A stretch of DNA of 64,000 nt from an uncultured Gemmatimonadota bacterium (GCA_951812955.1 OX638340.1:3072001-3136000); one strand, 5' to 3'; shown: positions 14,124-63,895, numbered from the stretch's first letter. The notes: a model not told the origin generated them from the sequence alone. Made by a program: numbers and translations.

Positions 14124-15340
14124 CTGCCACCGCACTGCCTGACAAAAGAGGACACTTCGGGGTCTTCGGCGGCCGTTACGTCCCGGAAACGCTGATGACG
14201 GCCCTGGACGAACTCCTCGAGGTATATGAAGCGGCGACGCGGGATCCCGTCTTCGAGGATGAATTCCGCTACTTCCTGGCGGACTACGTGGGCCGGCCTT
14301 CCCCCCTTTACTTCGCGGAACGACTGACGGAGACCCTCGGCGGCGCCCGGATCTACCTCAAGCGGGAAGACCTGAACCACACGGGCGCCCACAAGATCAA
14401 TAACACCATCGGCCAGATCCTGCTGACCCGGCGCATGAATAAACCCCGGGTCATCGCCGAGACCGGAGCCGGCCAGCACGGCGTGGCCACGGCGACCGTG
14501 GCCGCCCGTTTCGGCCTGGAGTGCGACGTCTACATGGGGACCGAGGACATGGAACGCCAGGCGCTTAACGTCTTCCGCATGCGCCTGATGGGGAGCCGGG
14601 TCATCGGCGTCGACGCGGGCAGCCGCACGCTGAAGGACGCGCTGAACGAAGCCCTGCGCGACTGGGCGACCAACGTGCGGCATACCCATTACATCATCGG
14701 ATCGGTGGCGGGGCCCCATCCCTTCCCCTTGATGGTACGGGAATTCCAGTCGGTCATCGGCCGCGAAGCGCGCGGGCAGATCCTGGAGAAGGAAGGGCGG
14801 CTGCCGGATATGCTTGTCGCCTGCGTGGGGGGAGGCAGCAACGCCATCGGCCTCTTTCATCCTTTTCTAGACGACGAAGTGCAACTGGTCGGCGTGGAAG
14901 GGGCGGGGCACGGGCTCGACACCGGCCTGCACGCCGCGACGCTGGGCCAGGGCACGCCGGGCGTACTGCACGGCGCCATGAGCTATACGGGACAGGACGC
15001 AAATGGCCAGATCCAGGTCGCCCATTCCATCTCCGCCGGGCTGGACTATCCCGGTGTGGGACCCGAGCACAGCTACCTGAAGGACTCCGGCCGCGCGGAT
15101 TACGTCAGTGTGACCGATGACGAGGCGCTGGAGGCCTTCGAGCTGCTGTCCAGGGTCGAAGGCATCATACCCGCCCTGGAAAGCGCCCACGCCATCGGCC
15201 ATATCGCCCGGATCGCCCCGGGAATGGACCGGGATCAGATCATTGTCGCCGGGCTGTCGGGCCGCGGGGACAAGGATGTCGAGCAGGTATACGGATTCAT
15301 GGACCAGGAGCGGGTGGACCAGGAGCGGATGGAGGGCTGA
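14120..15340 (+). CDS. trpB: Tryptophan synthase beta chain
   Basis: 406 aa; [26 protein letters not shown] motifs. Confidence 0.9.
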
Positions 15341-16162
15341 ATGAACCGCATTGAAGAGACCTTCGCGACGCTTAAGTCTGCGGAACGGAAAGCGCTCGTC
15401 CCGTACATCATGGCGGGAGATCCGGACCTGGAAACGACCGCCGACCTGGTCGTGGAACTGGATCGCCGCGGCGCCGACCTGGTCGAACTGGGCGTTCCCT
15501 TCTCCGATCCCATCGCGGACGGCCCGACGATACAGCGCGCCGCGCTGCGGGCCCTGGATCAGGGCACGACCCTCCGGAACATCGTCGGTACGGTCGGATC
15601 CATCCGGGAGCGGTCGGACATACCAATCGTCCTGATGACCTATTACAACCCGGTACTCGCCTACGGTATCGAGGATCTTTGCCGAGATGCCGTCCGCACA
15701 GGTGTGGACGGTCTGATCGTACCCGACCTCCCGCCGGAAGAGGGCGGCGACCTGTCCGATGCCTGCCGGCGACATGGACTCACCGTCGTGTTCCTGGTGG
15801 CGCCCACGAGCACAAAGGCCCGGATCGAACTGGTGGGCCGCCACACCACGGGATTCGTATACTGCGTCTCCCTGACCGGCGTCACGGGCGCCCGGGGAAA
15901 GCTGGCGGACGGGGTGGACGAGTTTATGGCGCTGGTGCGGTCCCACACGGACCGGCCCCTTGGCCTGGGATTCGGCATTTCGTCGCCGGAACAGGCCAAT
16001 GAGGCCGCCCGGCTGGCCGACGGGGTCATCGTGGGCAGTGCCATAATCAACGTAATGGAAGAACACGCCGGCGAGCCGGATTTGATCCGGACCGTGGGCG
16101 AATACGTGGCTTCACTGAGAGCGGGCATAGACAGGAAGAACCCGGTGACCGCGCCGGGGTGA
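15341..16162 (+). CDS. trpA: Tryptophan synthase alpha chain
   Basis: 273 aa; LVPYIMAGDPDLETT, ELGVPFSDPIADGP, GFGIS. Confidence 0.9.
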   Translation: MNRIEETFATLKSAERKALVPYIMAGDPDLETTADLVVELDRRGADLVELGVPFSDPIADGPTIQRAALRALDQGTTLRNIVGTVGSIRERSDIPIVLMTYYNPVLAYGIEDLCRDAVRTGVDGLIVPDLPPEEGGDLSDACRRHGLTVVFLVAPTSTKARIELVGRHTTGFVYCVSLTGVTGARGKLADGVDEFMALVRSHTDRPLGLGFGISSPEQANEAARLADGVIVGSAIINVMEEHAGEPDLIRTVGEYVASLRAGIDRKNPVTAPG

Positions 16163-16375
16163 TTTCGGGTAACGGGTTCGATGCCGGGGTAGCTTCTGGT
16201 GCCGGGTACGATGCCGTTTGCACAGGAATTGAACATGACAGCAGTTTCATCCAGCCAGGGAGATGCATGTGGGAGTCGAGGAGCCCGGTCGGGTCTCTGC
16301 GGCTCCCACGTATTCCAACCAACTTTTCAGGTATGTTTCTGATAGAATCCAGCATTCCGCATTCCAGGAGGAACC

Positions 16376-16741
16376 ATGGTCCGGGGCGTTCGAGGCGCCA
16401 TAACCGTTGAACTGAACACCGCCGATGCCATTGGAGAAGCGTCCCGGCGACTGCTGTCGGCGATCGTCGACGCCAATCGCATCGAATTGGAGCAGATCGC
16501 CAGCGTCATCTTTTCCGCGACGAAGGATCTCGACGCCGAGACGCCCGCATTGGGAGCGCGCCAGATGGGATGGACGTCGATCCCCCTGTTCTGCACCCAG
16601 GAGATGGAAGTCCCAGACGGACTTGCCCGGTGCATCCGGGTTCTGATTCACGTAAACACGGTAAAACCACAGGATGAAATACGGCATGTTTACCTGAACG
16701 GAGCCGTAGTACTCAGGCCGGACATCGCCGAAGGAGGTTGA
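16376..16741 (+). CDS. aroH: Chorismate mutase, AroH class (monofunctional)
   Basis: 121 aa; [12 protein letters not shown]...CIRVLIHV...[15 protein letters not shown] matches AroH-type CM; AGGAGG RBS 6 nt upstream. Confidence 0.8.
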
Positions 16742-16742
16742 A

Positions 16743-17759
16743 ATGGTGGTCGTAATGAAGCCGCAGGCTTCGGAAGACCAGAAGGAGCATGTAAGGGATA
16801 CCATCCGTGCTTTCGGCTGCAAACCGCGTGACATTCAGGGTGACGCAATTACAATTATCTGTCTTATCGGCAATACACTGAGCCTTTCGCCCGAACAGTT
16901 TGAAATCCTTGACGGGGTGGACCGGGTTCAGCGCATTCAGCGGCCATACAAGCTCGTAAGCCGGGAAGTGCAGCCGCACAAGACCCAATTTCAGGTAGGC
17001 AACGTCACGATCGGCGGCGATGGGATTACCATCATAGCCGGTCCCTGTTCGGTCGAATCCTATGACCAGTTCGTGGAAGCGGCGCGGCACGCCCGGGCGG
17101 CCGGGGCCCACATCATCCGCGGCGGCGCGTTCAAGCCGCGGACTTCCCCCTACAGTTTCCAGGGGCTCGGCGAGGAAGGCCTGAAGATCATGGCCCGGGT
17201 CAGCGAGGAAACGGGACTGCCGACCATCTCGGAGGTGATGGAGCCGGAAATGGAACCGATGGTCTCCGAGTACGTGGACATGCTGCAGGTCGGCGCGCGC
17301 AATATGCAGAACTACCCGCTGTTGAACGCCGTGGGACAGAGTTCCAGGCCCGTCATGCTCAAGCGCGGCATGTCCGCCACGATCGAGGAGATGCTGCTGG
17401 CGGCAGAATACATCCTTGCGGGGGGAAACCACAACGTCGTTCTGTGCGAGCGGGGTATACGGACCTTCGAGACCTGGACGCGGAATACACTCGACATCTC
17501 GGCCGTGCCGGTGTTACAGAAATACACCCATCTGCCGGTCTTCATCGATCCGAGCCACGGAACCGGCAACGCGGATTTCGTGGGTCCGGCGTCCCGGGCG
17601 GCCGTTGCGGTCGGCGCGGACGGACTCATGATCGAGATGCATCCCAGACCCGAGCGCGCACTTTCGGACGGGGACCAGTCTCTGACTCCGGAAGCGTTTG
17701 CCTCGCTGATTCCGGAATTGCAGGCGGTCGCGACAGCCGTGAACCGCACCATAGACTGA
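16743..17759 (+). CDS. aroF: 3-deoxy-7-phosphoheptulonate (DAHP) synthase, type I-beta with N-terminal ferredoxin-like regulatory domain
   Basis: 338 aa; N-terminal about 80 aa ([43 protein letters not shown]) resembles the FL regulatory domain of Thermotoga-type DAHPS; core [23 protein letters not shown]. Confidence 0.8.
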
Positions 17760-17767
17760 GTTCGTTT

Positions 17768-18631
17768 ATGCGAGTCACCATCATCGGAGTCGGATTGCTG
17801 GGCGGTTCCTTCGGCATGGCGCTCCGCAAGTCGGGGGCGGCGGATCATGTCGCGGGCGTCGACCTGGACCGGGCAACGCTCGACCGGGCCATCGATCGCG
17901 GCGCGGTCGACGAGGGATTCCTCGACCTGGCCGAGGGGGTGGAAAGGGCCGACCTGGTCGTGCTCGCCACGCCGGTCCGGGCCATACTCGAGATGCTGCC
18001 GGGCCTGGCGTCGATTCTCGGTGCGGAGACCGTCCTCCTGGACCTGGGCAGCACCAAGGAGGCCATCGTTTCCACCGTCGCCAGTCAGGCCGGAATCAAA
18101 CGGTATGTCGGCGGACACCCCATGGCGGGAACCGAGCACGCCGGCATCGAACACGCCGATGCCCGGTTGCTGCAAGACGCGACTTTCGCCCTGGTCCCGC
18201 CTCCCGAGGTCGATGAAGGGGCTGTCGATCTGCTCACGGATCTCGTCCGCGGGATCGGCGCCTGTCCCGTCGTCATTCCCGCGGAACGCCACGACCGGAT
18301 CGTTTCCATAACCAGCCACCTCCCCTACCTGCTGTCCGTAGTGTTGGCGCTCGCCGCGGAAAACATGGCGCGCGAGGAAGACCGCCTGGGAGCGTTTGCG
18401 GCATCGGGATTTCGGGACACCACCCGTCTGGCCGCGTCCAACGTGCGCGTGATGGCCGACATTTGTCTGACGAACGGCCGGCCACTGCTCCGCGGCATCG
18501 AGGACGCCAGGCGGTTGCTGGACGACCTGGCGGCGCTGATCGAGGAGGGACGCGAGTCGGAACTGGTGAGGACGCTGACGACAGCGAAGGAAAGCAGGGC
18601 CTCGTTGTTGGAGGAGAGGAGAACCGATTGA
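17768..18631 (+). CDS. tyrA: Prephenate dehydrogenase
   Basis: ATG 17768; MRVTIIGVGLLGGSFGMALRKSG Rossmann N-terminus, HPMAGTE motif. Confidence 0.85.
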   Translation: MRVTIIGVGLLGGSFGMALRKSGAADHVAGVDLDRATLDRAIDRGAVDEGFLDLAEGVERADLVVLATPVRAILEMLPGLASILGAETVLLDLGSTKEAIVSTVASQAGIKRYVGGHPMAGTEHAGIEHADARLLQDATFALVPPPEVDEGAVDLLTDLVRGIGACPVVIPAERHDRIVSITSHLPYLLSVVLALAAENMAREEDRLGAFAASGFRDTTRLAASNVRVMADICLTNGRPLLRGIEDARRLLDDLAALIEEGRESELVRTLTTAKESRASLLEERRTD

Positions 18632-19470
18632 ACAAGTACAGGACCGGCTTCCAGGGCGAACTGGGCGCTTTCAGCGAAATGGCCGTGCAGGCATATTTCG
18701 GGGACGCGGCCGAACCGGTGCCACACGGGTGGTTCGACGACGTGTTCCGCGCCGTGGACGAAGGGCGGTGCGACTACGGGATGCTTCCGATCGAAAACAC
18801 CCTCGCGGGCAGCATCCACGTCAATTACGACCTGATGCAGGAGCACGACCAGCAAATCGTCGGCGAGATCGTGCTCCGGATCGTCCACAACCTGATGGCG
18901 AAACCGGGTGTCCGCCCGGAGGAACTCCGCCGGGTCCAGTCTCATCCCAAGGCGCTGGAACAGTGCGTCCGGTTTTTCCGGGAACATCCGTCGCTGAAGC
19001 CCGAAACTGTTTACGACACGGGCGGCGCGGCCAAGATGCTAGGTGAGGGAGAAGACCGGGACATCGGCGTGATCGCGAGTACCCGCGCCGCGGAGCGGTA
19101 CGGACTCGAGATCCTGGAGCACGGCATCGAAGACAACGTCCAGAACTATACGCGTTTCCTGGTCCTGGGCAGGGAGCCCGAACCACCTGTGGGCGAACGC
19201 CTTAAGACCTCCATCGTGTTCTCGATGCCCCACGAACCCGGCACGTTGTTCAAGGCCATGAGCGTATTCGCGCTGCGGGACATCTCCATCAACAAGATCG
19301 AATCGCGGCCCCTGGTCGGATCCCCCTGGGAGTACCTGTTCTACCTGGATTTCGAGGGACACGCCGACAGTCTGCTCTGCAAACGTGCGCTCAACCACCT
19401 CCAGGAGATCGCGACCAACTTCAAGCTGCTGGGATCCTACGCCGAGGGCAGCATCGTGGACCGGGTCTGA
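18628..19470 (+). CDS. pheA: Prephenate dehydratase (PDT + ACT domain)
   Basis: TTG 18628 (RBS GGAGGAGAGGA upstream) overlapping tyrA stop; NYTRFLVLG (TRF motif), ESRPLVGSPWEYLFYLD (ESRP motif). Confidence 0.85.
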   Translation: MNKYRTGFQGELGAFSEMAVQAYFGDAAEPVPHGWFDDVFRAVDEGRCDYGMLPIENTLAGSIHVNYDLMQEHDQQIVGEIVLRIVHNLMAKPGVRPEELRRVQSHPKALEQCVRFFREHPSLKPETVYDTGGAAKMLGEGEDRDIGVIASTRAAERYGLEILEHGIEDNVQNYTRFLVLGREPEPPVGERLKTSIVFSMPHEPGTLFKAMSVFALRDISINKIESRPLVGSPWEYLFYLDFEGHADSLLCKRALNHLQEIATNFKLLGSYAEGSIVDRV

Positions 19471-19480
19471 AGGGAACGGA

Positions 19481-21328: not shown

Positions 21329-21440
21329 GTTCCAGACTTTTTCTTAATATAAAGCGGCCGGTCGCTTCAAGCGTCATGATTCTACGATTCATCGTGTCCG
21401 GAAAGGTAAGGAACACTCCCGTGCAACCGTTAATATGTTA

Positions 21441-23248: not shown

Positions 23249-23262
23249 AACAGGAGTTCCCG

Positions 23263-30429: not shown

Positions 30430-30513
30430 CGGAGGTTCCGCCTGGCGCACGATCCGTGGCGGGTGACCTGTTCGGCGGACGCGATCCGCGGTCGGGTTGA
30501 CGGAGATTCCGCC
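30388..30513. repeat. Tandem duplication (about 55 bp x2, period about 71 bp) of the fmt 3' terminal codons plus stop
   Basis: copy 1 30388-30442 (...AGDQFGACDPRPG*), copy 2 30459-30513 would read AGDLFGGRDPRSG*. Confidence 0.7.
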
Positions 30514-30616
30514 GGGCGAAGGGCCGCCTGTCGCGCCGATGAACTAAAAGGAAGCCGCTCCCCGGAGATTGCCCGCCGGTACACGCGGCCGGAAAGCGCT
30601 GCGCGGAACCGTGACC

Positions 30617-37748: not shown

Positions 37749-37835
37749 GTCGCTCCTCCCGCATTGGAGTAGGTTCCTCCCGCATTGGAGCAGGTCGCTC
37801 CTCCCGCATTGGAGCAGGTCGCTCCTTCCGCCTGG
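37742..37835. repeat. Four tandem 21-24 bp repeats (ggagYaggtcgctcctcccgcatt), each a GGAGC-loop-GCTCC hairpin, between convergent PHP and pyrC genes; likely bidirectional terminator region
   Basis: units at 37742-37765, 37766-37786, 37787-37810, 37811-37835; first unit includes PHP stop codon. Confidence 0.6.
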
Positions 37836-48522: not shown

Positions 48523-48525
48523 AGA

Positions 48526-49419: not shown

Positions 49420-49425
49420 GATCGG

Positions 49426-51738: not shown

Positions 51739-51783
51739 AGTATTTTGTTGACTGGATGAAGTTTGGGACCCGGGCGGACGGCC

Positions 51784-52254
51784 TCAGTTGCCGATAATGC
51801 CTTCTTCGAGGTCGTCGGGCAACCAGATCATGACCTGGCCCGATTCCGATTCAAGCAGGATCGGGGCGGCAATGGTCTTGATGTCTTCCCGGGTGACGGA
51901 ACGGGCGCCGGTCAGCATGGCCCGTTCGATGATCAGTTCGGTCTGCGTGTCGTTAATGAGGCCCAGCTCCCGGAGTTCAAGGAGATAGCCATACGCGTCC
52001 GGCTGGATCATCAGCTGTTCCACGGCGTGCAGTATGCGGTTGGGTTTGGGTTGAAGCGGCAGGGTCGGATCGATCACGACTTCCGCCTGCGCCTGGAGGC
52101 GTTCGAACAGCCAGGCGAATGCCGTGTTGACCTCCTGCTGGGTATAGCCGTGTCCGACCAGGGTCTGCGAGACATCGGCGATGTCGTTGAAGCGGCCTTT
52201 CTCATCCTGCATGTGCTTCATCAGGAAAACGATGATTTCCATCACTTTTTCCAT
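51784..52254 (-). CDS. smg: Smg protein (DUF494)
   Basis: MEKVMEIIVFLMKHMQDE...; typical position immediately upstream of topA; ATG at 52254 with AGGAGAG RBS. Confidence 0.75.
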   Translation of the reverse strand: MEKVMEIIVFLMKHMQDEKGRFNDIADVSQTLVGHGYTQQEVNTAFAWLFERLQAQAEVVIDPTLPLQPKPNRILHAVEQLMIQPDAYGYLLELRELGLINDTQTELIIERAMLTGARSVTREDIKTIAAPILLESESGQVMIWLPDDLEEGIIGN

Positions 52255-52400
52255 GATTCTCTCCTGAAGGAATGCGAAGATGGTATAAGGACCGGGCCGA
52301 AGAACGACCCCCGGCTGTTCAGTGCACTTCCGGTTTTCGATGTCCAAATCTAATCTTTCAGGGGGTCTCATGCAAGTGTTTTTCCCGGTCCTGGATGCCA

Positions 52401-53423
52401 TTAAGACGCTTCGAATACCTTGCCTATTTCATCCCGGTCGAAGGTTGGCAGATCGACGACCGCCCCGTCCCTCCTTATCCGGATTCCGTACCCGGGAGGT
52501 TCTATAGAGCCAATCACGGCGGCCGGAATGCCGGCTTCCGCGAGGCGGGCGGTCACCGGGTCCGCGCAGTCCGCATCTACCACGATGAGCAGCGCGCCCG
52601 ACGCGATGACGCCAAGGGGATCCAGGCCGTAGTACGAACAAAGGGCCTCCGATTCGGGCAACAGGGGCAGCCGGTCCTCCTCGATGAGCATGCCGACATC
52701 GGAAGCGACGGCGATTTCGCGAAGCCCCGAAGCGACTCCGCCCTCCGTCGGATCATGCATGGCGTGGACCCCTCCGGTTTCCATGGCGATGCGGGATTCA
52801 CGGACTACGCTGAGGCCGGGCCGCCGGAGGTACAGGCGGCACGTCTCGAGAAATTCGTCGGAGAAACGAGCCCTGACCTCGTCACTTTTTTCCATGGCGA
52901 TCAGCGCCGTCGCCTCGATGGCGATGCCCTTGGTAAGCAGGATACGGTCGCCCACCCTGGCGCCGGATCCGGTAACGTAGCCGTCGGGTGTCGTTTCCCC
53001 CAGCATCTGCCCGATCAGCAGCGGCCGGTCCAGACCGTGGGTGATTTCGGTATGGCCACCGGCGAGCGTGACGCCGAGTTCCCGGCACGCGTCGGACAAC
53101 CCGGAGAATATGCGGTCCACCAGATCGGGGTCCGTTTTCGCTTCCGGAAGCAGTATGGTCGTGAGGAACCACCGGGGCGCCGCGCCCATGGCCGCCACGT
53201 CGTTGGCGTTTATGTTGACGGCGTACCAGCCGATCTCTTCGGTGGCGAAGGTGATAGGGTCCGTTTTCGTCACGAGTACGCTGGAACCGAACGAAATCAC
53301 CGCCGCGTCCCGGCCGATGCCAGGACCCACGAGCATTCTCGGGTCGGAACTGGAAGCATAGCGTCGCAGTATGCGGTCCAGATCTTCCGCGGGCAGCTTG
53401 CCGACCGGGTAATAGGGAGGCAT
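52401..53423 (-). CDS. AIR-synthase-related (PurM-superfamily; ThiL/HypE-like) protein of unassigned function
   Basis: LVGPGIGRDAAVI, NINANDVAAMGAAPRWFLTTILLPE (ThiL-like), MHDPTEGG; no C-terminal Cys (not HypE), no N-terminal Cys/Sec (not SelD). Confidence 0.6.
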   Translation of the reverse strand: MPPYYPVGKLPAEDLDRILRRYASSSDPRMLVGPGIGRDAAVISFGSSVLVTKTDPITFATEEIGWYAVNINANDVAAMGAAPRWFLTTILLPEAKTDPDLVDRIFSGLSDACRELGVTLAGGHTEITHGLDRPLLIGQMLGETTPDGYVTGSGARVGDRILLTKGIAIEATALIAMEKSDEVRARFSDEFLETCRLYLRRPGLSVVRESRIAMETGGVHAMHDPTEGGVASGLREIAVASDVGMLIEEDRLPLLPESEALCSYYGLDPLGVIASGALLIVVDADCADPVTARLAEAGIPAAVIGSIEPPGYGIRIRRDGAVVDLPTFDRDEIGKVFEAS

Positions 53424-53530
53424 GTCTCGCTGATCTGCGTGGGTGCTTGGATATCCGTGCGGAGGGCTTGTACCGGCGCCGCGGACCGCCGATTCCCGCA
53501 CGTCAGGCGGCGCGGGCGGCCGAGACCGGA

Positions 53531-53833
53531 TTATTCCCGCCGCTTTCGCTGGGCGCGCAAAGCTTCTTTGAGTATCTTCCCCGGTTTGAACCTGGCTTTA
53601 CGCCTGGCCGGAACTTCGATGGTATACCCGGTCCGCGGATTGCGGGCCGCCGGCTTGGGGCGGGTATTCCTGATTTCCAGCGCGCCGAATCCCCGGATCT
53701 CGATCCGGTTCCCCTCGACCAGGTTCTCCCGCATGATCTCGAAGAGGGCGTCGATCACGGGATAGATCTGGGTCTTTTTGAGCCCCAGCGTCTCGCTGAT
53801 TTCATTGACCAGTTCCCTGCGCGTCGTCGTCAT
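53531..53833 (-). CDS. HU/IHF-family DNA-binding protein
   Basis: 100 aa; RIEIRGFGALEIRNTRPKPAARNPRTGYTIEVPARRKARFKPGK. Confidence 0.85.
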   Translation of the reverse strand: MTTTRRELVNEISETLGLKKTQIYPVIDALFEIMRENLVEGNRIEIRGFGALEIRNTRPKPAARNPRTGYTIEVPARRKARFKPGKILKEALRAQRKRRE

Positions 53834-54507
53834 TTAGGTTCCTCGGACCCGATGCCTTCGTTTCCGCCGGACAATCCCGCCCGACCGTACATGCGGCGCA
53901 ACTTGTCCACGTTCTCTTCGCCTATGGTATTGACCTGGCCGAGCATGCGCGCCACGAGGGTAATCCGTGCGCAGTGCTCCATGGTCTCCATCTTGTGATA
54001 CGCCGCAACGATGTCCGGACCCAGGGTCAGCGCGCCATGGTTTTCGAGCAGGACCGCGTCGTATTCCCGCACGTATTCCCGGAGCGATTCGACCAGCTCC
54101 ATGGTTCCCGGCGTCCCGTATGGCGCGATGGGGACATGTCCGAGGGAGACGATCACTTCCGGCAGCAGGTTGTCCGGCAGATTCACCCCGGCCACGGAAA
54201 ACCCCGTTGACGCCGGTGGATGGGCGTGGGCGACGGCGTGCACGTCCGGCCGTTCCCGATACACCATCAGGTGCATTTTCATCTCGGACGAAGGCTCGTG
54301 ACTTCCGGAGATCACCGCGCCGTCATAATCGACGACCACGAACTTATCCGGATCGAGGAATCCTTTGCTGACCCCGGTCATCGTGATCAGCAACCGGTCT
54401 TCGGACAGCCGAACGCTGAGGTTCCCGTCGTTCGAGGCCACGTACCCGCGGTCATACATCCGCTTGCCGACATGGATCACGTCGGATAGGACTTGATCAA
54501 GTTGCAA
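53830..54507 (-). CDS. Class II aldolase/adducin-family protein (FucA / RuBP-epimerase / MTRu-1-P dehydratase-like)
   Basis: 225 aa; GNLSVRL, HAHPPAS, ENHG motifs; TTG start. Confidence 0.75.
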   Translation of the reverse strand: MQLDQVLSDVIHVGKRMYDRGYVASNDGNLSVRLSEDRLLITMTGVSKGFLDPDKFVVVDYDGAVISGSHEPSSEMKMHLMVYRERPDVHAVAHAHPPASTGFSVAGVNLPDNLLPEVIVSLGHVPIAPYGTPGTMELVESLREYVREYDAVLLENHGALTLGPDIVAAYHKMETMEHCARITLVARMLGQVNTIGEENVDKLRRMYGRAGLSGGNEGIGSEEPK

Positions 54508-54557
54508 GATAACTCGGTTCCAGGTGTAAGATTTCGGATTGCAGTATTACGATTTCG

Positions 54558-54586
54558 AATATATCCGGCCCGCCGATTCCGTACAA
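54558..54586 (-). promoter_or_regulatory. Candidate promoter TTGTAC-17-TATATT (minus strand) inside an unusually AT-rich 100-bp island
   Basis: region 54508-54605 is about 58% AT versus about 34% genome-wide; hexamers read on minus strand upstream of aldolase start. Confidence 0.35.
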
Positions 54587-54605
54587 GTATTATTATTTAC
54601 GTAAG

Positions 54606-56072
54606 TTATAAGCCGGACCTTACAATACGCGCCACGTCGTGAATCCGGCTTTTCTCTACGCCCCGCATGTCGATCCGGACCCGGTCCCGGCCGCAATCGA
54701 CCAGCAGAGGAGGGGTCCCATTAAGCCACCGGTCCGCCAGGTCTTCGCCCCTGGACCCCGGCGCGCGAACCGAGACAGCGAAGCTGGGCATGGCGTGGAT
54801 GGGAAGGCGGTACGTGGTGAGATGCGACCGCTGTTCGACCACGGTACACTCCGCGCGGAATCGACAGTCTTCAGTCAGGCGTTCGAGCAACTGGCGGGCA
54901 CGGGCGCCTACCTCGTCCGGGGATGCGGCCAGCATGTGGGCCGCCGGGTGGTTCTCGAGGTCGCAGTCGCTCCCGGCCAGTTCCGCCAGACGCGCGTCGA
55001 GCCCCGCTCTCACGTGCCTGGAGGCCCGCGCCGCGGGCCACATGCCGTGCCCTCTAATGCGCGCCAGGATCCGGCGCTTTCCGATCAGCAGTCCGCAGGG
55101 GGGACCGCCAATCAGGCCTCCGCCGGCCGCGATGATCAACGGCGTGCCGTGCCGCACCGCTTCCGCGACGGAGCCCGCGGCCGGAAGCGCGGCGGAAGTG
55201 ACCGGGCGCAACGTCGTGTCGCCGGCCAGGTGAAGCACCTCGACGCCGGTGTCCGTACCGGTCCGTACGATCTCTTCCTGCGCGGGTTCTTCTGTGAAAC
55301 CTCGAAGGGCGCAGGTGGACGGGCGCGCCGTGACGATCAGCGCGGTGCGGTCACCTACGGCGCCAAGGTAGTCGGACACGCGGGTCTTGTTGGCGGCGCC
55401 GGCCTCTACCACGGCTGCGCCGGCCTGTCCACAGATCGACACCGGACTCAAAGGCCGCGCATCGTAAGGCGCATCGATCAGTCCAAGCTGGCTGCGGCCG
55501 AAGACGACTTCCGCACCTTCGGCGAGGGCCCGGATCGCCAGGAAGAAAGCGGCGCCGACCGAACGGCATACCAGTGCGTCCTCGGCGCCGGTCAATTCGC
55601 CAAGCAGGCCGGAGGCGCGGCCGTCATCGTCGTAAGCCGCGACCGTGAGCGACAGCCGCGAAGCCCTATCCGCGGCCTTCCCGGCAAACCGGTCCCGCGC
55701 CCGTGGATGGAAGAGGATGCCGGAGGCGTTGATCAGGTCCCCGGCCGTCGACCTGTCTTCCCGCTCCAGGAGCGCGGCGACTCGTCCCGCGAAGTGCTCC
55801 GACTCGAAACCGGCCGTCGACCTTTCTTCCCGCTCCAGGAGCGTGGCGACTCGTCCCGCGAAGTGCTCCGGCTCGAAACCGCCTGCTTCAGTCTCGGGAG
55901 GACGGAACCGGATCCGGTCCCGCGCGTCGCGCAGTACTTTCCGGATCGCGTTGTCGATCTGCCGGTCCTCGAACCGGCCGCGCAATGCCCCGACGCGGGG
56001 ATCGCGTTGCATCGCGCCCACGGAAGGCAGGAGGGCGAGCCAGGGCCTTAAGTCTTCGCGGCCTGGTCTCAT
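54606..56072 (-). CDS. SelA-family (L-seryl-tRNA(Sec) selenium transferase-like) fold-type-I PLP protein LACKING the PLP lysine; contains 23-aa in-frame tandem duplication
   Basis: ATG 56072; LTGAEDALV, EVVFGRSQLGLIDAPYD...AGAANKTRVSDY, IVTARPSTCALRGFT align with SelA core; where SelA has SFSGDKLLGGPQAGIIVGK this has IIAAGGGLIGGPPCGLLIGK (Lys to Gly, DNA 55116-55118 = gcc on plus strand); the 624-aa track ORF has a spurious 136-aa N-extension. Confidence 0.65.
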   Translation of the reverse strand: MRPGREDLRPWLALLPSVGAMQRDPRVGALRGRFEDRQIDNAIRKVLRDARDRIRFRPPETEAGGFEPEHFAGRVATLLEREERSTAGFESEHFAGRVAALLEREDRSTAGDLINASGILFHPRARDRFAGKAADRASRLSLTVAAYDDDGRASGLLGELTGAEDALVCRSVGAAFFLAIRALAEGAEVVFGRSQLGLIDAPYDARPLSPVSICGQAGAAVVEAGAANKTRVSDYLGAVGDRTALIVTARPSTCALRGFTEEPAQEEIVRTGTDTGVEVLHLAGDTTLRPVTSAALPAAGSVAEAVRHGTPLIIAAGGGLIGGPPCGLLIGKRRILARIRGHGMWPAARASRHVRAGLDARLAELAGSDCDLENHPAAHMLAASPDEVGARARQLLERLTEDCRFRAECTVVEQRSHLTTYRLPIHAMPSFAVSVRAPGSRGEDLADRWLNGTPPLLVDCGRDRVRIDMRGVEKSRIHDVARIVRSGL

Positions 56073-56785
56073 GCGGGGATTCCTCCCCGGCCTACCGTCG
56101 CGAGCGCGGATTCCGTGCAGCGTCCGGTCGAGGGATCGCCGCCGGCCCGCAGCGCCCGTATCTCGCGGGCGACCCGGTCCAGATCGGCGGGCCGGTCCAC
56201 GTCGTGCCAGACCGGGAGCTCGTGGCACGTAAGACCGCTTGCCCGGATTGCCGCCCGAGTCTGGCGCAACACGCGGCCTGTGCCCCAATGGATGGAGTCG
56301 AACAGCCTGGCGCAACGGCATGCGACCTTCACGCCGCGTCTCATGCCGATCAGGTAATACCCGCCGTCCTCGGCAGGTCCGAGCACAACGTCGTGCCGGT
56401 CGAGCGACTCGAAAGCCTCTTCGACGTAAGCGCGGGGCAGGAGGGGGCTGTCTCCACCCAGCACGACGGTCTTGTCCCATTCATTCTGCAAGAACTCCGC
56501 GAAGGCGTTCGACAGCCGTTCCCCGAGATGACCACCTCGCTGGCCGGTCCATATCACGTCCGGATCGCCGAGGGCGGACCGGAGATCCGCCAGTCCGTCT
56601 TCGGGCGCCCAGGCAACGTAGAGGGACGCGCTGGCGATCCCTTGCGCAATATGGAGCGTGTCCAGGATGAAGGCGCGGTAGAGTGCCGCCGCCGCACCGG
56701 GTGAGACCCGCGCCGTCAACCGGGTTTTCACCGTCCCGGGTCTCGGGGCTTTCATGAACAGGACGAGTGCGTTCGACATGGACAT
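56069..56785 (-). CDS. DUF2064-family protein (GT-A / MobA-like nucleotidyltransferase fold)
   Basis: LVLFMKAPRPGTVKTRL, LGGDSPLLP, GPAEDGGYYLIGMRR, HDVDRPADLDRV; stop overlaps SelA-like start (ATGA); start chosen at Met 56785 (track ORF starts 56863). Confidence 0.6.
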   Translation of the reverse strand: MSMSNALVLFMKAPRPGTVKTRLTARVSPGAAAALYRAFILDTLHIAQGIASASLYVAWAPEDGLADLRSALGDPDVIWTGQRGGHLGERLSNAFAEFLQNEWDKTVVLGGDSPLLPRAYVEEAFESLDRHDVVLGPAEDGGYYLIGMRRGVKVACRCARLFDSIHWGTGRVLRQTRAAIRASGLTCHELPVWHDVDRPADLDRVAREIRALRAGGDPSTGRCTESALATVGRGGIPA

Positions 56786-57084
56786 GTGCTGGACGTTACA
56801 GGGAAGACAGGTTCCGCCCGGGGGCGGCAAGGCATTGAACCGATGCGTTGCGAGGCAACCCATGCATACTACCTGGCGGCTCGTGACGTGTCAATTAAAA
56901 CCCCTGTTTATCAACCAGTTAACCCGATTTCCATCAGCTCGGGAACAACAATAAGACTTGACATTAAGGGTACTTGAAGGTTATTTTCGGCCTTTCTTGC
57001 CGGGCGCCGGCCTTCCCCGATACATAAGGACCGGAGCCCGTTAAAGACGAGCCGCCTGGCGGCGCCGGGTCCGATCCATGGAAG

Positions 57085-58062
57085 ATGGCCATGTGGGATG
57101 AAATCAAGGCAGCCATAGCATCGAACCAGTCCTTCGTGATATCCAGTCACGTCAATCCGGACGGGGATTCGGTCGGCTCGGCCCTGGGGGTCTACGAGTG
57201 TCTTAAAACGCTCGGGAAGGACGCCGTCGTCGTCATGAACGACGCCATTCCCGATGCCTATACCTGGCTGGACCCGGACGGGGATATCATCGCGCCGGCC
57301 TCGGAGGCGGATATCGCGCGCCTGGGGGACATGGACGTGGCCGTCATCGTGGACGCCAACGGCTGGGACAGGCTGGGGCGTTTACGGAAGCCGCTGGAAG
57401 AATCGCCGGCAGTCAAGGTCGTGATCGACCACCATCCATACAGTGAACTGATCACGCCCTTGTCGGTGATTGAGACGAATGCGTCTTCAACGGCCGAGCT
57501 CGTTTATGATCTGATCGACTCATTAGGCGCGCCGCTTTCTTCGAGGGCGGCGGACGCGCTATACACGGGCATACTCACCGATACCGTTTCCTTCCGTTTC
57601 GCCAGAAGCGCTCCATGCGCCCATGTCATCGCGGCCAAGCTCCTTTCCGCGGGCGTCGACCCGTCCCGGGTCTACGACCAGGTCTACAACCGCAACACGG
57701 GCGCCCGAACCCGGCTCATGGGCCGCGCGCTCTCCGATATTCAATTCACCGGATGCGGCCGCGTCGCCTGGCTGACCGTAACACGTTCCATGATTGAGGA
57801 GACCGGCGCGCTGTCCTCGGATACGAGCGGGTTCGTGGACGTGACCATGACCATCGCCGGCATTCGGATCGGGATCATTTTCGTGGAGTCCAGAGACGGC
57901 ACGGTCCAGATCAGCTTGAGGTCCCGGCCCGATACCGATATCAATCAGGTCGCCGTAGACCTGGGCGGCGGCGGCCACAGGAACGCCGCGGGCGCCGTGT
58001 ACAGCGGCACGCTCGAACAGGCCGTCAGGACCGTCACGGCGGCGGCGGTCACCGCACTCTAG
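57085..58062 (+). CDS. nrnA: NrnA-type DHH/DHHA1 nanoRNase / pAp phosphatase
   Basis: 325 aa; FVISSHVNPDGDSVGSALG, DHH context VVIDHH, C-terminal GGGHRNAAGA. Confidence 0.8.
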   Translation: MAMWDEIKAAIASNQSFVISSHVNPDGDSVGSALGVYECLKTLGKDAVVVMNDAIPDAYTWLDPDGDIIAPASEADIARLGDMDVAVIVDANGWDRLGRLRKPLEESPAVKVVIDHHPYSELITPLSVIETNASSTAELVYDLIDSLGAPLSSRAADALYTGILTDTVSFRFARSAPCAHVIAAKLLSAGVDPSRVYDQVYNRNTGARTRLMGRALSDIQFTGCGRVAWLTVTRSMIEETGALSSDTSGFVDVTMTIAGIRIGIIFVESRDGTVQISLRSRPDTDINQVAVDLGGGGHRNAAGAVYSGTLEQAVRTVTAAAVTAL

Positions 58063-58156
58063 CACGGCAGTCACCGAATTCCGGCTCGGTGGTCACCGCA
58101 CGCTGGTACGGCTGTTATTCCCGCGGGCCGGCTGACCGTCCGAACCATCCGACCGC

Positions 58157-58981
58157 ATGATACTCATTACGCGAAAAACCCGTTTCTCGGCGGCCCATCT
58201 GTGCCACGACCCGCAGTGGCCGGAGGCCAGGAACAGGCGGGTGTACGGAACCTGCGCCGTCGGCACCGGCCACGGTCACGACTACGAGGCCGAATTCACT
58301 TTCGGAGGACCAGTCGATCCCCGGACCGGCGTGGTCCTGAACCTGACCGAGGTCAAGCGGCTGATCCACGCCGTGATCGAGCCGCTGGATCTGAGCCATC
58401 TGAACCACGACCACGCCGCCCTGGAGGGTCCGGCTCCGACGAGCGAAAGACTCGTCCGGTACCTCTGGCACGCGCTGGAAAGCGGTACCGGGCGGTGCGA
58501 GCTTACGCGCATCCTGCTCCATGAAAGCCGCGCGAGAAGTATCGAATACACTGGAGACGACAGCATGGTCCTTGTCACGAGAAGCGTAGAGTTCAACGCC
58601 GCCCACCGTCTGCACAGTATTAAGTTGAGCGACGAAGAGAACGTGCGTATATTCGGCAAGTGCAATAACCCGCACGGCCACGGCCACAATTATGAACTCG
58701 CGGTGACGGTCCGCGGCCCGGTAGACGAGAAGACCGGGATGGTCATCGACATGGGACGTTTCGATGAGATCCTCCAGAAGGAAGTCGTGGATCGTTACGA
58801 TCACCGGCACCTGAACCGGGACCTGGAGGAATTCAGGACGGTCAATCCGACCTCGGAGGAGATGCTACGCGTTATCTGGGCGCGGCTGCTTCCCTTTTTC
58901 GATTCCCCATCCCTGTACAGGATTCGCCTGGTGGAAACGTCCAAGAACGCTTTCGAGTATTTCGGAGAAGAGGACCGGTAA
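58157..58981 (+). CDS. Two-domain 6-pyruvoyl-tetrahydropterin synthase / QueD-like protein
   Basis: 274 aa with two PTPS modules, each with C-x5-HGH motif ([12 protein letters not shown] and [12 protein letters not shown]). Confidence 0.75.
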
Positions 58982-58986
58982 CCACG

Positions 58987-59550
58987 ATGGATCCTATCGA
59001 GGGATTGACAAGGTCACTGCTCGCCGAAATCGGCGAGAACCCGGACCGGGACGGTCTCAGGCGGACGCCCCGCCGCGTAGCGGAATCCCTGCGGTTTCTG
59101 ACACAGGGCTACGAAAAAAGCATTGAAACCGTTATTAATAACGCTATCTATGAAGAGGACTACGATGAGATGGTACTGGTGAAGGACATTGAGTTCTTCT
59201 CGCTGTGTGAGCACCACCTGCTGCCGTTTTTCGGCCAGTGCCATATCGCCTACATACCCAACGGCAAGATAATCGGACTCGGCAAAGTCCCCCGCATCGT
59301 GGACGTCTTCTCGCGGCGTCTGCAGTTGCAGGAGCGCCTGACCTTCCAGATCGCCCAGACCCTGCAGACCTGGCTCGACCCCCTCGGGGTGGCGGTTGTC
59401 ATGGAAGCGGGCCATCTCTGCATGATGATGCGCGGCGTGGAGAAACAGCACTCCAAGGCGACGACGAGCGCCATGCTCGGCGTATTCCGGGACGATCGCG
59501 CCACGCGGATGGAATTTCTCGATCTGACCCGGTCGAAGCACGGCGGGTAA
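58987..59550 (+). CDS. folE: GTP cyclohydrolase I
   Basis: 187 aa; [14 protein letters not shown], zinc-binding Cys/His pattern. Confidence 0.9.
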
Positions 59551-59612
59551 AGCGGGACAGAGGCAGGCCGGAGACCGGCTTGTTGAAAAGCCGGCGATCG
59601 GCCGATTGACCG

Positions 59613-61073
59613 GTGGGGTACACCATCATGAACAAAGACCGACTCGTGGACCGACTCGCGGCCGTGCTGGGCCGCGACAACGTCATCGACGCGCCGGACC
59701 AGCTGATCGTGTACGAATGCGACGGGCTGACCATCGACCGGAACGCCCCTCATGCCGTGGTCTACCCGACCACGACGGAGGAGGTCGCGGCCGTGGTCCG
59801 CATACTCCACGAAGCAAGGATCCCCTTCGTGGCGCGCGGGGCCGGCACCGGGCTGAGCGGCGGGAGCCTGCCGCCCGACGGCGGGGTCATGATCGCCCTG
59901 ACCAAGATGAACCGCATCGTGGAGGTCGACTTCCGGAACCAGCGCGCGCTGGTGGAAGCCGGCGTGGTCAACCTGCACCTGTCAAAGGAAACCGGCAAGC
60001 AGGGCTACCATTTCGTGCCGGACCCATCGAGCCAGTACGCCTGTACCATCGGCGGAAACATCGCCGAGAACTCGGGCGGTCCCCACACATTGAAGTACGG
60101 GGTCACGACCAACCACACGCTGGGCGTGGAGGTGGTCTTGCCGGACGGGCAAGTCACGTGGTTCGGCGGCAAGGCCGAAGACACCGTGGGGTACGATCTG
60201 CGCGGCCTCCTGATCGGCTCCGAAGGCATGCTGGGCATCGTTACGCGGGCGTGGGTCAAACTGACCCGCCTTCCCCAGGCCTGGCGGACATTTCTGGTGG
60301 TATTCGACAGTGTGGAAGACGCGTCCCGCGCCGTCGCCGGCGTGGTGGACCGGGGAATCGTCCCTTCGGCCCTCGAAATGATCGACCGGGTCGCCATCGG
60401 CGCCATCGAGGCTGCCTACCATTTCGGATTTCCACTGGACGCGGAAGCCGTGCTGATCATCGAACTCGAGGGGCACGAGGCGGGTCTGGGCGCCCAGGCC
60501 GAAGCGGTGACCGCGGTGTGTGGGGATAACCGGGCCCGCGAAATCCGTACCGCGGAAGACGACAGGGAACGCGCCCTGCTGTGGACGAGCCGCAAACGGG
60601 CCTTCGGCGCCATGGGACGCCTGAGTCCCAGCTACTACGTGCAGGACGGCGTGGTTCCACGTACGAAAATCCCGGACATCATGCGGGTCATCCGGACGAC
60701 GGCCGAGAAATACGAACTGCTGATCGGCAACGTGTTCCACGCCGGCGACGGCAACATCCATCCCTGTATCGCATATGACGACCGGGACGAGGAACAGGCG
60801 CAGAAGACCGTGGAGGCCAGCAACGAGATCCTGCGGGCCTGTGTCGACCTGGGCGGATCCATCACCGGGGAACACGGCATCGGATATGAAAAGGTCGACC
60901 TGATGCCCCTGATTTTCGACGAACCGGATATCCAGGCCATGGAGACGGTTAAAGAGGTGTTCGACGGGGACAACCTCAGCAATCCCGGCAAGATGTTTCC
61001 CACGAACCGTTCCTGCATCGGATGCGGAACGGCTGAACTGAAATACACTAACCGCCAGGCGGCGCTGCTCTGA
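59613..61073 (+). CDS. glcD: FAD-linked oxidase, GlcD-like (glycolate/D-lactate dehydrogenase family)
   Basis: 486 aa; FAD-binding PCMH domain RGAGTGLSGGSLP; GTG 59613 or ATG 59628. Confidence 0.8.
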   Translation: MGYTIMNKDRLVDRLAAVLGRDNVIDAPDQLIVYECDGLTIDRNAPHAVVYPTTTEEVAAVVRILHEARIPFVARGAGTGLSGGSLPPDGGVMIALTKMNRIVEVDFRNQRALVEAGVVNLHLSKETGKQGYHFVPDPSSQYACTIGGNIAENSGGPHTLKYGVTTNHTLGVEVVLPDGQVTWFGGKAEDTVGYDLRGLLIGSEGMLGIVTRAWVKLTRLPQAWRTFLVVFDSVEDASRAVAGVVDRGIVPSALEMIDRVAIGAIEAAYHFGFPLDAEAVLIIELEGHEAGLGAQAEAVTAVCGDNRAREIRTAEDDRERALLWTSRKRAFGAMGRLSPSYYVQDGVVPRTKIPDIMRVIRTTAEKYELLIGNVFHAGDGNIHPCIAYDDRDEEQAQKTVEASNEILRACVDLGGSITGEHGIGYEKVDLMPLIFDEPDIQAMETVKEVFDGDNLSNPGKMFPTNRSCIGCGTAELKYTNRQAALL

Positions 61074-61097
61074 ACTCGATGGCACACAGGTTAACCC

Positions 61098-62495
61098 ATG
61101 CCCGATGAGGTGCTGCACAGCAGGCTCGGATCCGTCGTGGACGGATATGCGCCCGCGAGCCGGGAAACGCTGGCTTCCCTTGCCGTGGAAGGGGTCGTTC
61201 CCTCGGCCTTCGTAGCCCCGGGAAGCGTGGAGTCCCTTTCGGCTACCGTGAAAGTGGCCACGGAACTGGGTTACGCCGTGATTCCGCGGGGTGGCGGCAC
61301 CAAGATGGACTTCGGCCATCCGCCCTCCCGCGCGGACATCGTGGTGTCCATGGAGCGCCTCAACCGGATCGTCGCCCACGAACCGGCGGACCAGACGGCC
61401 ACTGTAGAGGCCGGCATCACCATGGCCGGGCTGCAGTCCGGGCTGGGAAAAAGAGGCCAGTATCTTCCCCTGGACCCGCCTCACGGCGATGCGTGCACCC
61501 TGGGCGGCGTACTCGCCACCAATGCCTCCGGCGTGCTCAGGACCTCCTTCGGTACGGCCAGGGACATGGTCATCGGCGCCCGTGTGGTCCAGGCGGACGG
61601 CACGGTTGTGCGTTCCGGCGGTCAGGTCGTCAAGAACGTAGCGGGTTACGACCTGAACAAGATGTACATCGGTTCGCTCGGCACGCTCGGCATTCTCGCG
61701 GAGGTGAATCTCAAGCTCCAGCCCCTGTCGGCTGCGGGAAGAATCGTCATCGGAAACATGCCGGAGCTGGGCGCTGCCGCCGAATGCGCATTTCGGGTTA
61801 TGGACTCGGAGGTCATGCCGTCCTTCCTGGAATTAGCCAATCCCGCGGCCTGCGCCTTGCTTGCGGGTGATGCCGGCGGTGCGCCGGTCCACGGCGCCGG
61901 GGAGGGCAGCGCGCGGAACGGACATCATTTCACGCTTGTAGCGGGCATGATCGGACCGAACGAGACGGTGGACTGGCAGTCCAAGGAATGCGAACGGCTT
62001 TTCCGGGAGTCGGGCGCGGTCGAAGTCGTCCAGACGGACGGGGACGGATACCGCCGGCTTCTCGATGCGATGCGGGCTTTTCCCGCGGGCCGGCTCGTGC
62101 CCCGGGGCATGGGGCCGGGGTTGACCTGCCGCGCCGGCGTGACTCCGGACAGGGTGGACGCGCTGTTCCGGCTGGCGGATGAAGGCTGCCGGCGCCTGTC
62201 CATCGGCTGTGCCATGCTCTCCCATTTCGCAAGCGGCCACGTGGCCTTCGTCTTCTACCGGGAAGGGACGTTCCAGGTTCCGGAATTCGACGGGTTGGCG
62301 GGCCTGATCGAGGCATTGCGGAGCGCGTCGGAACAACAGGGCGTCTTCGTGGTGGAGCATGCGCCCGCCGCCCTGAGGGAACGGGTCGGCGTGTGGGGTT
62401 CAACCGGAGGAAACCAACGCATCATGGAAATGCTCAAATACCGTTTCGATCCGAAAAGCACGTTGAATCCGGGTCGGTTTACGGACGGAATCTGA
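61098..62495 (+). CDS. glcE: FAD-binding oxidoreductase, GlcE-like
   Basis: 465 aa; second PCMH-type FAD-binding domain PRGGGTKMDFG. Confidence 0.7.
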   Translation: MPDEVLHSRLGSVVDGYAPASRETLASLAVEGVVPSAFVAPGSVESLSATVKVATELGYAVIPRGGGTKMDFGHPPSRADIVVSMERLNRIVAHEPADQTATVEAGITMAGLQSGLGKRGQYLPLDPPHGDACTLGGVLATNASGVLRTSFGTARDMVIGARVVQADGTVVRSGGQVVKNVAGYDLNKMYIGSLGTLGILAEVNLKLQPLSAAGRIVIGNMPELGAAAECAFRVMDSEVMPSFLELANPAACALLAGDAGGAPVHGAGEGSARNGHHFTLVAGMIGPNETVDWQSKECERLFRESGAVEVVQTDGDGYRRLLDAMRAFPAGRLVPRGMGPGLTCRAGVTPDRVDALFRLADEGCRRLSIGCAMLSHFASGHVAFVFYREGTFQVPEFDGLAGLIEALRSASEQQGVFVVEHAPAALRERVGVWGSTGGNQRIMEMLKYRFDPKSTLNPGRFTDGI

Positions 62496-62558
62496 AGGAA
62501 CCGGCCTTGTGAAGCCACGGATGTGCCGCACAAGATCCGGTTAAACGGGAGATCCCAA

Positions 62559-63818
62559 ATGAAACTGCCTGCATTCAGGGAGATTCGCCAGCGGTTCGAC
62601 GCGCCTGTCGTCGAGGATATATCCGGAACGACTGAAATGGAAGTCTCCCGCATGATCGAGGAGACGGGCATGCGCGCCGGATCTACGGTGGCCGTCGCGT
62701 GCGGAAGCCGGGGGATCGGAAACATAGCGACCATCGTCGGGAGTGTCGTTTCCGCACTCGGCAAAGCCGGACTGAAGCCGTTCGTTGTACCGGCCATGGG
62801 CAGTCACGGGGGTGCGACTTCCGAAGGACAGCAAAGGGTACTGGAGAACTACGGTATCAGCGAAGCGGCGACCGGGTGCCCCGTACGCTCCGACATCGAG
62901 CCTGCGAGCCTCGGGCAGACCGAGGACGGACTGCCGGTTTACCTGGACCGGAATGCCCTGTCCGCGGACCATATCGTGGTGGTCAACCGTGTGAAGCCCC
63001 ATACGGACTTCAAGGGATCGGTAGGTAGCGGACTGATGAAGATGCTGGCTATCGGGCTGGGCAAGCAGAAAGGCGCCAGCTACTATCACGGCGCGGTCTT
63101 CGAATACGGGTTCGAACACATGATCACGACCGTGTCCGGGCACGTTCTCGAGCACGCGCCTGTGGCCTTCGGACTGGCCATCATCGAGAACGCCTACGAT
63201 CAGACCGCCCACATCTCGGGCGTCCCTGCGAATGTCCTGCAGCAAGAAGAACGCCGCCTCTTCCAGGAGGCGCAGCGCCTCATGCCCCGCCTTCCGTCCG
63301 ACGACATCGACATACTGATCGTCGACGAGATGGGGAAGAACATCAGCGGGACCGGCATGGACACGAATATCATCGGCCGGCGCATGCAGAATTTCGAGAA
63401 TGAGCCCGCGGTTCCGCGGATCCTGCGCATCATCGTCCGCGACCTGACCCCGCAGAGCGAGGGCAACGCCGTGGGCATCGGTCTCGCCGATTTCACCACC
63501 CGCCGCCTGGTGGACAAGATCAATCACCAATACACCTACGTCAATTCCATCACGGGCATGAGCCCTCAGAAATCCCGCATTCCCGTGTTTCTGGACACGG
63601 ACCGCGAAGTAATCGAGGCCGCCTTCTCCACCATCGGCATGAAGCCGCCCGGGGACGGACGCGCCGTCCGCATAAAGAACACGCTCTCCCTCGGACGCGT
63701 AGCGGTTTCCGACGCCCTGTCGGAAGAACTGGCCGATCGGGAGGACATCGAATTCACGGACCGCCGCGGACCGCTGGAATTCGACGGACGCGGTACCCTG
63801 GCGTCCCTTCCGGACTGA
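62559..63818 (+). CDS. Conserved hypothetical protein (420-431 aa), no Fe-S motifs; family not recognised
   Basis: GGGAGA RBS before ATG 62559 (track ORF from 62523); VAVACGSRGIGN, VPAMGSHGGAT segments; occupies the position where GlcF would be expected. Confidence 0.4.
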   Translation: MKLPAFREIRQRFDAPVVEDISGTTEMEVSRMIEETGMRAGSTVAVACGSRGIGNIATIVGSVVSALGKAGLKPFVVPAMGSHGGATSEGQQRVLENYGISEAATGCPVRSDIEPASLGQTEDGLPVYLDRNALSADHIVVVNRVKPHTDFKGSVGSGLMKMLAIGLGKQKGASYYHGAVFEYGFEHMITTVSGHVLEHAPVAFGLAIIENAYDQTAHISGVPANVLQQEERRLFQEAQRLMPRLPSDDIDILIVDEMGKNISGTGMDTNIIGRRMQNFENEPAVPRILRIIVRDLTPQSEGNAVGIGLADFTTRRLVDKINHQYTYVNSITGMSPQKSRIPVFLDTDREVIEAAFSTIGMKPPGDGRAVRIKNTLSLGRVAVSDALSEELADREDIEFTDRRGPLEFDGRGTLASLPD

Positions 63819-63895
63819 GTCGGCGGCTCCATCTGAACCTGACGCCCTTCCGGACTGAATCGGCGGTCCACCTGGGCTGAACCTGCCGCCCTTCC
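63805..63895. repeat. Tandem duplication (about 42 bp x2.2) of the 3' terminal codons plus stop of the preceding gene
   Basis: cccttccggactgaGtcggcgg... / cccttccggactgaAtcggcgg... / cccttcc. Confidence 0.7.

Follow-up and report, generated by a model that had tools for sequence, protein, structure and literature searches.

A stretch of 64,000 nucleotides from an uncultured Gemmatimonadota bacterium (GCA_951812955.1 OX638340.1:3072001-3136000; hereafter the window, meaning the whole stretch at its full length) carries short tandem repeat arrays in which the end of a gene, often including its stop codon, has been copied head to tail. In our view these arrays are most probably ordinary short tandem duplications produced by replication slippage, which survive where they do no harm. 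The preliminary description of the stretch had offered slippage with tolerance at C-termini and past stop codons as one of its explanations, and this part of it has held up well, given the presence of single-copy alleles with flanking microhomology in relatives, copy numbers that vary between near-identical strains, and a strict reading-frame filter inside genes. The process is a known, textbook one, and the arrays are not a new kind of element.

We applied Tandem Repeats Finder (TRF) to the window and took a score of at least 60 as the mark of a high-scoring array. Ten distinct arrays of this kind are present in the 64 kb, against ~0.1 per 64 kb in random sequence (a second-order Markov model of the same composition, or shuffled triplets). 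Every case listed in the preliminary description was recovered, confirming that the tandem duplications at gene 3' ends are real, and its gene names were upheld by Pfam; its list lacked two arrays, one over the stop of a DHH-domain gene and one in a promoter spacer. The window has a guanine-cytosine (GC) content of 63%, and our own simple codon-usage gene caller, from which the stop positions were taken, returned 64 genes with 93.6% coding sequence and a median spacer of ~30 bp, the gene identities being assigned via Pfam. The ten arrays and one weaker repeat are as follows.

4548-4640, no strand assigned: array in the 545-bp spacer of divergent genes, 45 bp x2.1 (TRF).
15299-15333, plus strand: in-frame C-terminal repeat of trpB, 15 bp x2.3, ending 5 nt before the stop (TRF, Pfam PALP).
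16153-16216, plus strand: stop-straddling array of trpA, 30 bp x2.1, 79% matches (TRF).
30383-30518, plus strand: stop-straddling array of fmt, 71 bp x1.9, with four ~35-bp subunits (TRF).
37741-37831, plus strand: stop-straddling array of a PHP-domain gene, 24 bp x3.9 (TRF).
39319-39357, minus strand: in-frame repeat in a GcvT/YgfZ-family gene, 18 bp x2.2, 100% matches (TRF, Pfam).
44082-44112, plus strand: weak in-frame repeat, 12 bp x2.5, TRF score 39, near the end of the gene at 43122-44123, with 9 nt between the repeat and the stop.
49449-49493, minus strand: in-frame C-terminal tail of topA, 18 bp x2.5 (EADQAD), 21 nt upstream of the stop (TRF).
55741-55881, minus strand: in-frame repeat in the N-terminal region of a SelA-like gene, 69 bp x2.0 (23 aa) (TRF, Pfam).
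58043-58112, plus strand: stop-straddling array of a DHH/DHHA1 gene, 22 bp x3.2 (TRF).
63797-63895, plus strand: stop-straddling array of a LarA_N/DUF362 gene, 40 bp x2 or 22 bp x2.9 (TRF).

The stop codon lies inside five of the ten high-scoring arrays (trpA, fmt, and the PHP, DHH, and LarA_N/DUF362 genes), two are in-frame C-terminal tails (trpB and topA), two are in-frame and internal to their gene (GcvT/YgfZ-family and SelA-like), and one, at 4548-4640, sits in a divergent promoter spacer and is the sole member touching no gene end. None of the ten contains a start codon. The fmt array extends from 15 codons before the TGA to 25 nt past it; the PHP array fills the spacer up to a convergent Amidohydro_2 gene; and the LarA-family array holds a TGA in each copy and ends at a conserved promoter. 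The GcvT/YgfZ-family duplication adds 6 aa to its protein.

By its fmt and trpA homologues, the window belongs to a tight clade sharing 74-97% amino acid (aa) identity, the next relatives outside it reaching at most 62% (fmt) and 76% (trpA). The clade records are metagenome-assembled genomes (MAGs) labelled Gemmatimonadetes bacterium (APA_bin_41, IRC1_bin_16, SB0665_bin_8) or Candidatus Latescibacterota (e.g., Plut_88884), joined by several chromosome-level assemblies of 3.7-3.97 Mb. The clade is uncultured and, judging from the isolate names, appears to be associated with sponge and coral holobionts. For comparison we collected syntenic loci from the clade, 24 in all, which correspond to three regions of the window, around fmt (L001-L002), the DHH gene (L003-L018), and trpA (L125-L130). 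Arrays were counted in 551 kb of clade sequence at a period of at least 9 and a score of at least 50. A metagenome scan with trpA returned nearly no clade members (L051, a partial locus, at 93% and L045 at 69%). Its diverse contigs of at least 12 kb around trpA, combined with loci from Desulfuromonadales, served as the controls, 52 loci of unrelated bacteria in total.

In syntenic alignments, the repeated unit is present as a single copy in relatives for the fmt, PHP, GcvT-family, SelA-like, DHH, LarA-family, trpA, and trpB arrays, and the unduplicated alleles are bounded by GC-rich direct repeats of 3-8 nt. The GcvT-family gene has one 18-bp unit in L001 and L002, with CGC at its borders and a protein of 358 aa versus 364 aa in the window; trpA has one 30-bp unit in L125 and L126, bordered by GCCGG on either side; the unduplicated DHH allele shows the microhomology GTC; and the single SelA-like unit in L004 has imperfect borders, CCGnCCG. 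At the borders of the fmt and PHP arrays the sequence is too complex for microhomology to be read; the PHP array is itself missing from L001 and L002. The same pattern is seen in the opposite direction at the neighbouring Amidohydro_2 stop, where L001 has its own 25-bp x2.4 duplication with the microhomology CGTCCGCC, and the window counterpart is unduplicated and holds TCCGCC twice, 24 bp apart.

Copy number at these sites varies between strains. The DHH stop region is single-copy in L004, duplicated in L003, and triplicated in the window, at 5-7% neutral divergence, and L013 carries an independent 44-bp x2.8 array over its own TAA. The LarA-family stop arrays differ in unit or copy number among the window, L003, L005, L007, L013, L015, L016 (x6.8), and L017 (23 bp x3.1, with 100% identical copies), and eight other genomes, L004 among them, have one copy. 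The trpB repeat is common to L125 and L126, with L128 ending in a single copy (MDPERMEG*) and L127 and L129 in other repeat tails. Fewer units of the topA tail are found in L004, and 9-, 18-, or 27-bp repeats in varying number occupy the same place in other clade members, while the 69-bp SelA-like duplication, present in L003 and absent from L004, has its counterpart in 18-bp repeats of their own at nearly the same site in L013 and L009. For fmt, L001 (96% aa identity) has one 71-bp unit and L002 lacks any spacer, and the fmt homologues of the clade carry differing C-terminal repeats. Four of these homologues (P0009, P0016, P0029, and P0030) have independent in-frame C-terminal tail repeats (AAGDLLG x2; a 13-aa unit x2), and they also carry an N-terminal GRPG-type repeat insertion near residue 22.

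Independent recurrence is also seen in the spacer (61074-61097) downstream of the gene that ends at window position 61073. This spacer measures 24-25 nt in nine genomes (the window and eight relatives); in L005, L006, L007, L010, L011, L012, and L018 it has been expanded by duplications, every one of which takes in the stop of the upstream gene. Their units have four or more distinct boundaries, and the last 20 nt before the next ATG are always unaltered. Arrays over start codons also occur: in L002, the ribosome-binding site, the TTG start, and codons 1-6 of ffh are repeated in a 37-bp x4.3 array (L002 12415-12572), which fills a spacer measuring 17 nt in the window.

All sequences considered here are metagenome-assembled and were judged from assemblies rather than reads, and the preliminary description had listed an assembly artefact of the bin among its explanations. 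We find this scarcely credible. The trpB duplication recurs in both L125 (ENA) and L126 (Logan), and the SelA-like duplication and a LarA-end array recur in the independent short-read MAG L003; similar arrays are present in the chromosome-scale assemblies (3.3-3.97 Mb) of relatives. Moreover, the arrays are shorter than a read, their copies have diverged rather than being identical, and inside genes they respect the reading frame, as artefacts would not be expected to do.

This last property holds across the clade. The period is a multiple of 3 in 41/42 arrays internal to a coding sequence (CDS) and in 13/14 of those in the last 30 nt of genes, versus 5/19 of the stop-straddling arrays, which is the chance level. 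The frame filter within genes, set against its absence at stops, indicates that the mutational input is not confined to gene ends and that selection removes harmful events. One out-of-frame array was noted in L129 (15379-15429, 16 bp x3.1), at the point where an NFACT-family gene splits into open reading frames (ORFs) of 416 and 161 aa in different frames; the split is either a real pseudogene or a consensus error of that assembly.

The same figures bear on the suggestion, also made in the preliminary description, that duplicated stops are retained by selection for back-up (tandem) stop codons. Second in-frame stops do exist: in trpA the TGA is followed by a TAG 10 codons on, in the PHP gene a stop follows 8 codons on, and in the LarA-family gene a TGA lies 6 codons downstream. 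Regeneration of an in-frame stop from the homologous copy, as previously described, applies to trpA and the PHP gene only; in fmt, with its period of 71, the second TGA is out of frame, and neither fmt nor the DHH gene has an in-frame second stop within 50 codons. Given that stop-array periods show no preference for the frame, that later copies lose the stop (the PHP copies read TAG, TAG, CAG, and CAG, and DHH copies 2-3 have none), and that the nearest relatives lack the arrays altogether, we consider selection for back-up stops very improbable.

The density of arrays is raised in this clade. We counted 102 arrays in its 551 kb (18.5 per 100 kb) compared to 65 in 965 kb of control sequence (6.7 per 100 kb; 5.6 in controls with GC of at least 0.58), a difference of ~2.8-fold per kb (per-locus Mann-Whitney p=2e-5). 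Counted per gene, stop-straddling arrays are likewise more frequent (19/551 in the clade versus 6/956 in controls, Fisher p=7e-5). Within the clade, array density rises with GC (Spearman 0.62), but the high-GC controls are poor in arrays, so GC alone is insufficient to account for the clade load. Four loci have only 0-1 arrays in ~21 kb (L004, L006, L008, and L011), among them the lowest-GC members of the clade (L006, L008, and L011). In L004 (OY762445.1), whose DHH protein is 97% identical, arrays with a score of at least 50 are absent from 21 kb, and positions 47000-64000 of the window have four. The array load therefore differs sharply within the clade.

On a further reading, which we consider rather unlikely, microhomology-mediated tandem duplications would form more often, or be retained more often, as a heritable trait of the clade, for which possible causes are a lost or altered slippage-suppressing function or very GC-rich microhomology. 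If this were true, gene ends and spacers would be fast-evolving loci resembling variable-number tandem repeats (VNTRs), altering gene spacing, and hence translational coupling, between symbiont strains.

The preliminary description had drawn particular attention to the concentration of arrays at stop codons. This concentration is present, but it is not particular to the lineage; similar concentrations are found in the control bacteria, and what is raised is the overall density. More stops than starts are spanned in both sets (19 versus 5 in the clade, 5 versus 0 in the window, and 7 versus 2 in controls), which identifies the gene-end concentration as a general outcome of selection in compact genomes.

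We also considered a mutational mechanism specific to 3' ends, in which conflict arising from transcription termination or replication, R-loops, or paired nicks with fill-in and end joining would generate duplications preferentially at stops. Its attraction lies in the repeated independent hits at the same places (at least four lineages for the LarA end, at least four unit boundaries for the 61073 end, two hits at the DHH end, and several in the fmt tail) and in the share of non-CDS arrays located at stops, which under a uniform model should be ~21% in the window and ~15% in the clade and is in fact 5/6 and 19/44, respectively. This mechanism is nonetheless unlikely, given that controls show a similar stop share and stop-to-start ratio (7 versus 2), that start-spanning (ffh of L002), promoter-spacer, and many in-frame internal arrays also exist, and that the recurrent sites are also those where the downstream spacer is free or the tail dispensable, as expected under tolerance. 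No terminator-like sites (a GC-rich hairpin followed by a T-run) were found at any array on the relevant strand, and the counts of such sites are not above the shuffle expectation; slippage driven by terminators was rejected on this ground.

Another explanation would treat the arrays as cis-elements with a function, or as a family of mobile repeats located downstream of genes, such as protein-binding arrays, structured RNA, terminators, or MIRU/REP-like elements. The intercistronic position, variable copy number, and unit size of 20-70 bp do resemble mycobacterial MIRU loci, and the PHP unit holds a small GGAGC-N5-GCTCC hairpin. However, the arrays share no sequence with one another and have no extra copies in the window, where an all-versus-all blastn-short comparison and searches of each array against the window gave only chance matches of 8-15 nt; the units copy the local gene end, which is single-copy in relatives, and the closest relatives lack the arrays, hence there is no conservation. 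The fold z-scores of the arrays (-1.7 to +0.6) are unremarkable, and Rfam gave no matches in the window at the gathering threshold and none in permissive searches of the trpA spacer and the L004 leader after the LarA-family gene. On these grounds a structured RNA or riboswitch was rejected, as was a dispersed repeat family (REP, MIRU, or MITE) for lack of a shared consensus; tRNA-linked integration scars were rejected since the window has no tRNA genes. Taken as a whole, the cis-element explanation seems to us quite improbable.

We therefore return to slippage followed by survival where harmless. The molecular event, which we infer to be slippage, would follow the classical replication-slippage model, with short GC-rich direct repeats serving as the sites of slipped-strand mispairing or template switching and giving units of 9-72 bp. 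Duplications would arise throughout the genome and expand and contract quickly, with the harmless ones persisting. Where a duplication spans a stop, neither the protein encoded before it nor the sequence farther downstream is disrupted, and the period is therefore unconstrained; of the duplicated sequence past the stop, the distal copy would stay beside the next gene, as in the spacer after 61073. Inside genes, only in-frame copies would be expected to survive, mostly in terminal tails and linkers. With 94% of the window coding and a median spacer of ~30 bp, stop-spanning duplications become a main visible class, and a ~2.8-fold array density in the lineage then yields seven or more cases in a single 64-kb window.

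Several observations weigh against this account. The first is the divergence between copies, which amounts to 12-32% within the arrays of trpA, fmt, and the PHP and DHH genes, whereas the nearest single-copy genomes show only 4-7% divergence from the window, as measured at third codon positions and in spacers, a discrepancy that requires an explanation. Error-prone duplication as its source was ruled out, given that many clade arrays are 100% identical and the duplication itself is therefore faithful. On the simplest reading, the decayed arrays would be older than the strain splits and would have been contracted in the sister strains; at fmt, the junction sequence is more easily reconciled with loss in L001 than with a simple gain on the window side. 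The second concerns the stops themselves, as the share of arrays containing a stop (19/102 in the clade versus 6/65 in controls, p=0.12) is not significantly above the controls and that within 15 nt of one is similar (~29%, 30/102, versus ~25%, 16/65), so that the concentration at stops is not lineage-specific. The third is that, under a uniform model of random duplication on the window gene map, 2.0% of events would span a stop, 2.2% would span a start, and 4.3% would be purely intergenic. The observed order, with stops ahead of spacers and spacers ahead of starts, departs from this model and requires additional selection against promoter and 5' events, which is plausible and is assumed here. 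Finally, the clade sample represents three orthologous regions, so its counts are partly pseudo-replicated, and the comparison is one of loci rather than whole genomes, with genes taken from our own caller.

For annotation, this means that spacers and C-terminal tails in these genomes consist in part of decayed gene-end copies, which are not to be taken for small ORFs, regulatory repeats, or mobile elements, and that variation in protein length between strains stems from these duplications. The arrays are also highly variable markers for strain discrimination. Their raised density hints at a lineage-specific rate of slippage or retention, and the threefold load suggests that replication or repair differs in fidelity or that such events are purged less strongly. 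A literature search for tandem repeats in sponge-associated Latescibacterota or Gemmatimonadota found nothing specific.

Several neighbouring features were noted in the course of this work. Directly after the LarA-family array lies a near-consensus promoter, TTGACA-16-TATATT (11/12 matches; window 63906-63933), followed by a leader of ~130 nt (to window 64000; L004 16665-16828) upstream of the next gene. The leader is conserved in 16/16 clade loci and has no Rfam match; it may be an undescribed cis-regulatory leader. The spacer between trpA and the chorismate mutase gene (~16265-16310) contains a stem, gtgggagtc paired with gactcccac or ggctcccac, around a variable inner hairpin. This stem is present in 6/7 clade loci examined (missing in L127), upstream of CM_1, DAHP synthase, prephenate dehydrogenase, and prephenate dehydratase genes, and had no Rfam match even at E<=1; it may be an attenuator or leader for aromatic amino acid genes. 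The spacer itself belongs to a long co-directional run (window ~5066-19470) encoding nearly the whole aromatic amino acid pathway, with trpE/G/D/C/F, aroE, aroC, an aroK-aroB fusion, aroQ, trpB, trpA, chorismate mutase, DAHP synthase, prephenate dehydrogenase, and prephenate dehydratase, the order of which is conserved across the clade.

Among known systems, the MIRU loci of mycobacteria, with their well-known unit sizes and use in strain typing, resemble the window arrays in having tandem units of tens of base pairs between co-directional genes, in overlapping gene boundaries, and in varying in copy number between strains. MIRUs form a dispersed family of shared sequence that is apparently mobile, inserts at start codons, and contains a coupled small ORF (PMC12548453). 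Unlike these, each window array copies its own gene end, shares no sequence with the others, and lies mostly on a stop. REP and BIME elements are similarly located just past gene 3' ends and are sometimes clustered, but the window arrays have no common palindromic consensus, dispersed copies, or significant folding. Tandem stop codons find a parallel in trpA, the PHP gene, and the LarA-family gene, each of which has a second stop after the first; unlike selected tandem stops, the arrays show neither an in-frame preference nor conservation. Phase-variable contingency loci are likewise driven by slippage and unstable in copy number, but their units are 1-8 bp long, compared to 9-72 bp in the window arrays, whose copy changes switch no gene on or off.

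The closest counterpart is microhomology-mediated tandem duplication, which is far commoner at long GC-rich microhomology, reverts at a high rate, and is filtered for reading frame by selection (PMC8639346). The window arrays agree with it in their head-to-tail local copies, bordering direct repeats, fast copy number change, and in-frame survival. Nothing in the window is different in kind; what sets its lineage apart is a density ~2.8 times that of the sampled controls, together with the retention of several arrays until their copies had diverged by 12-32%.

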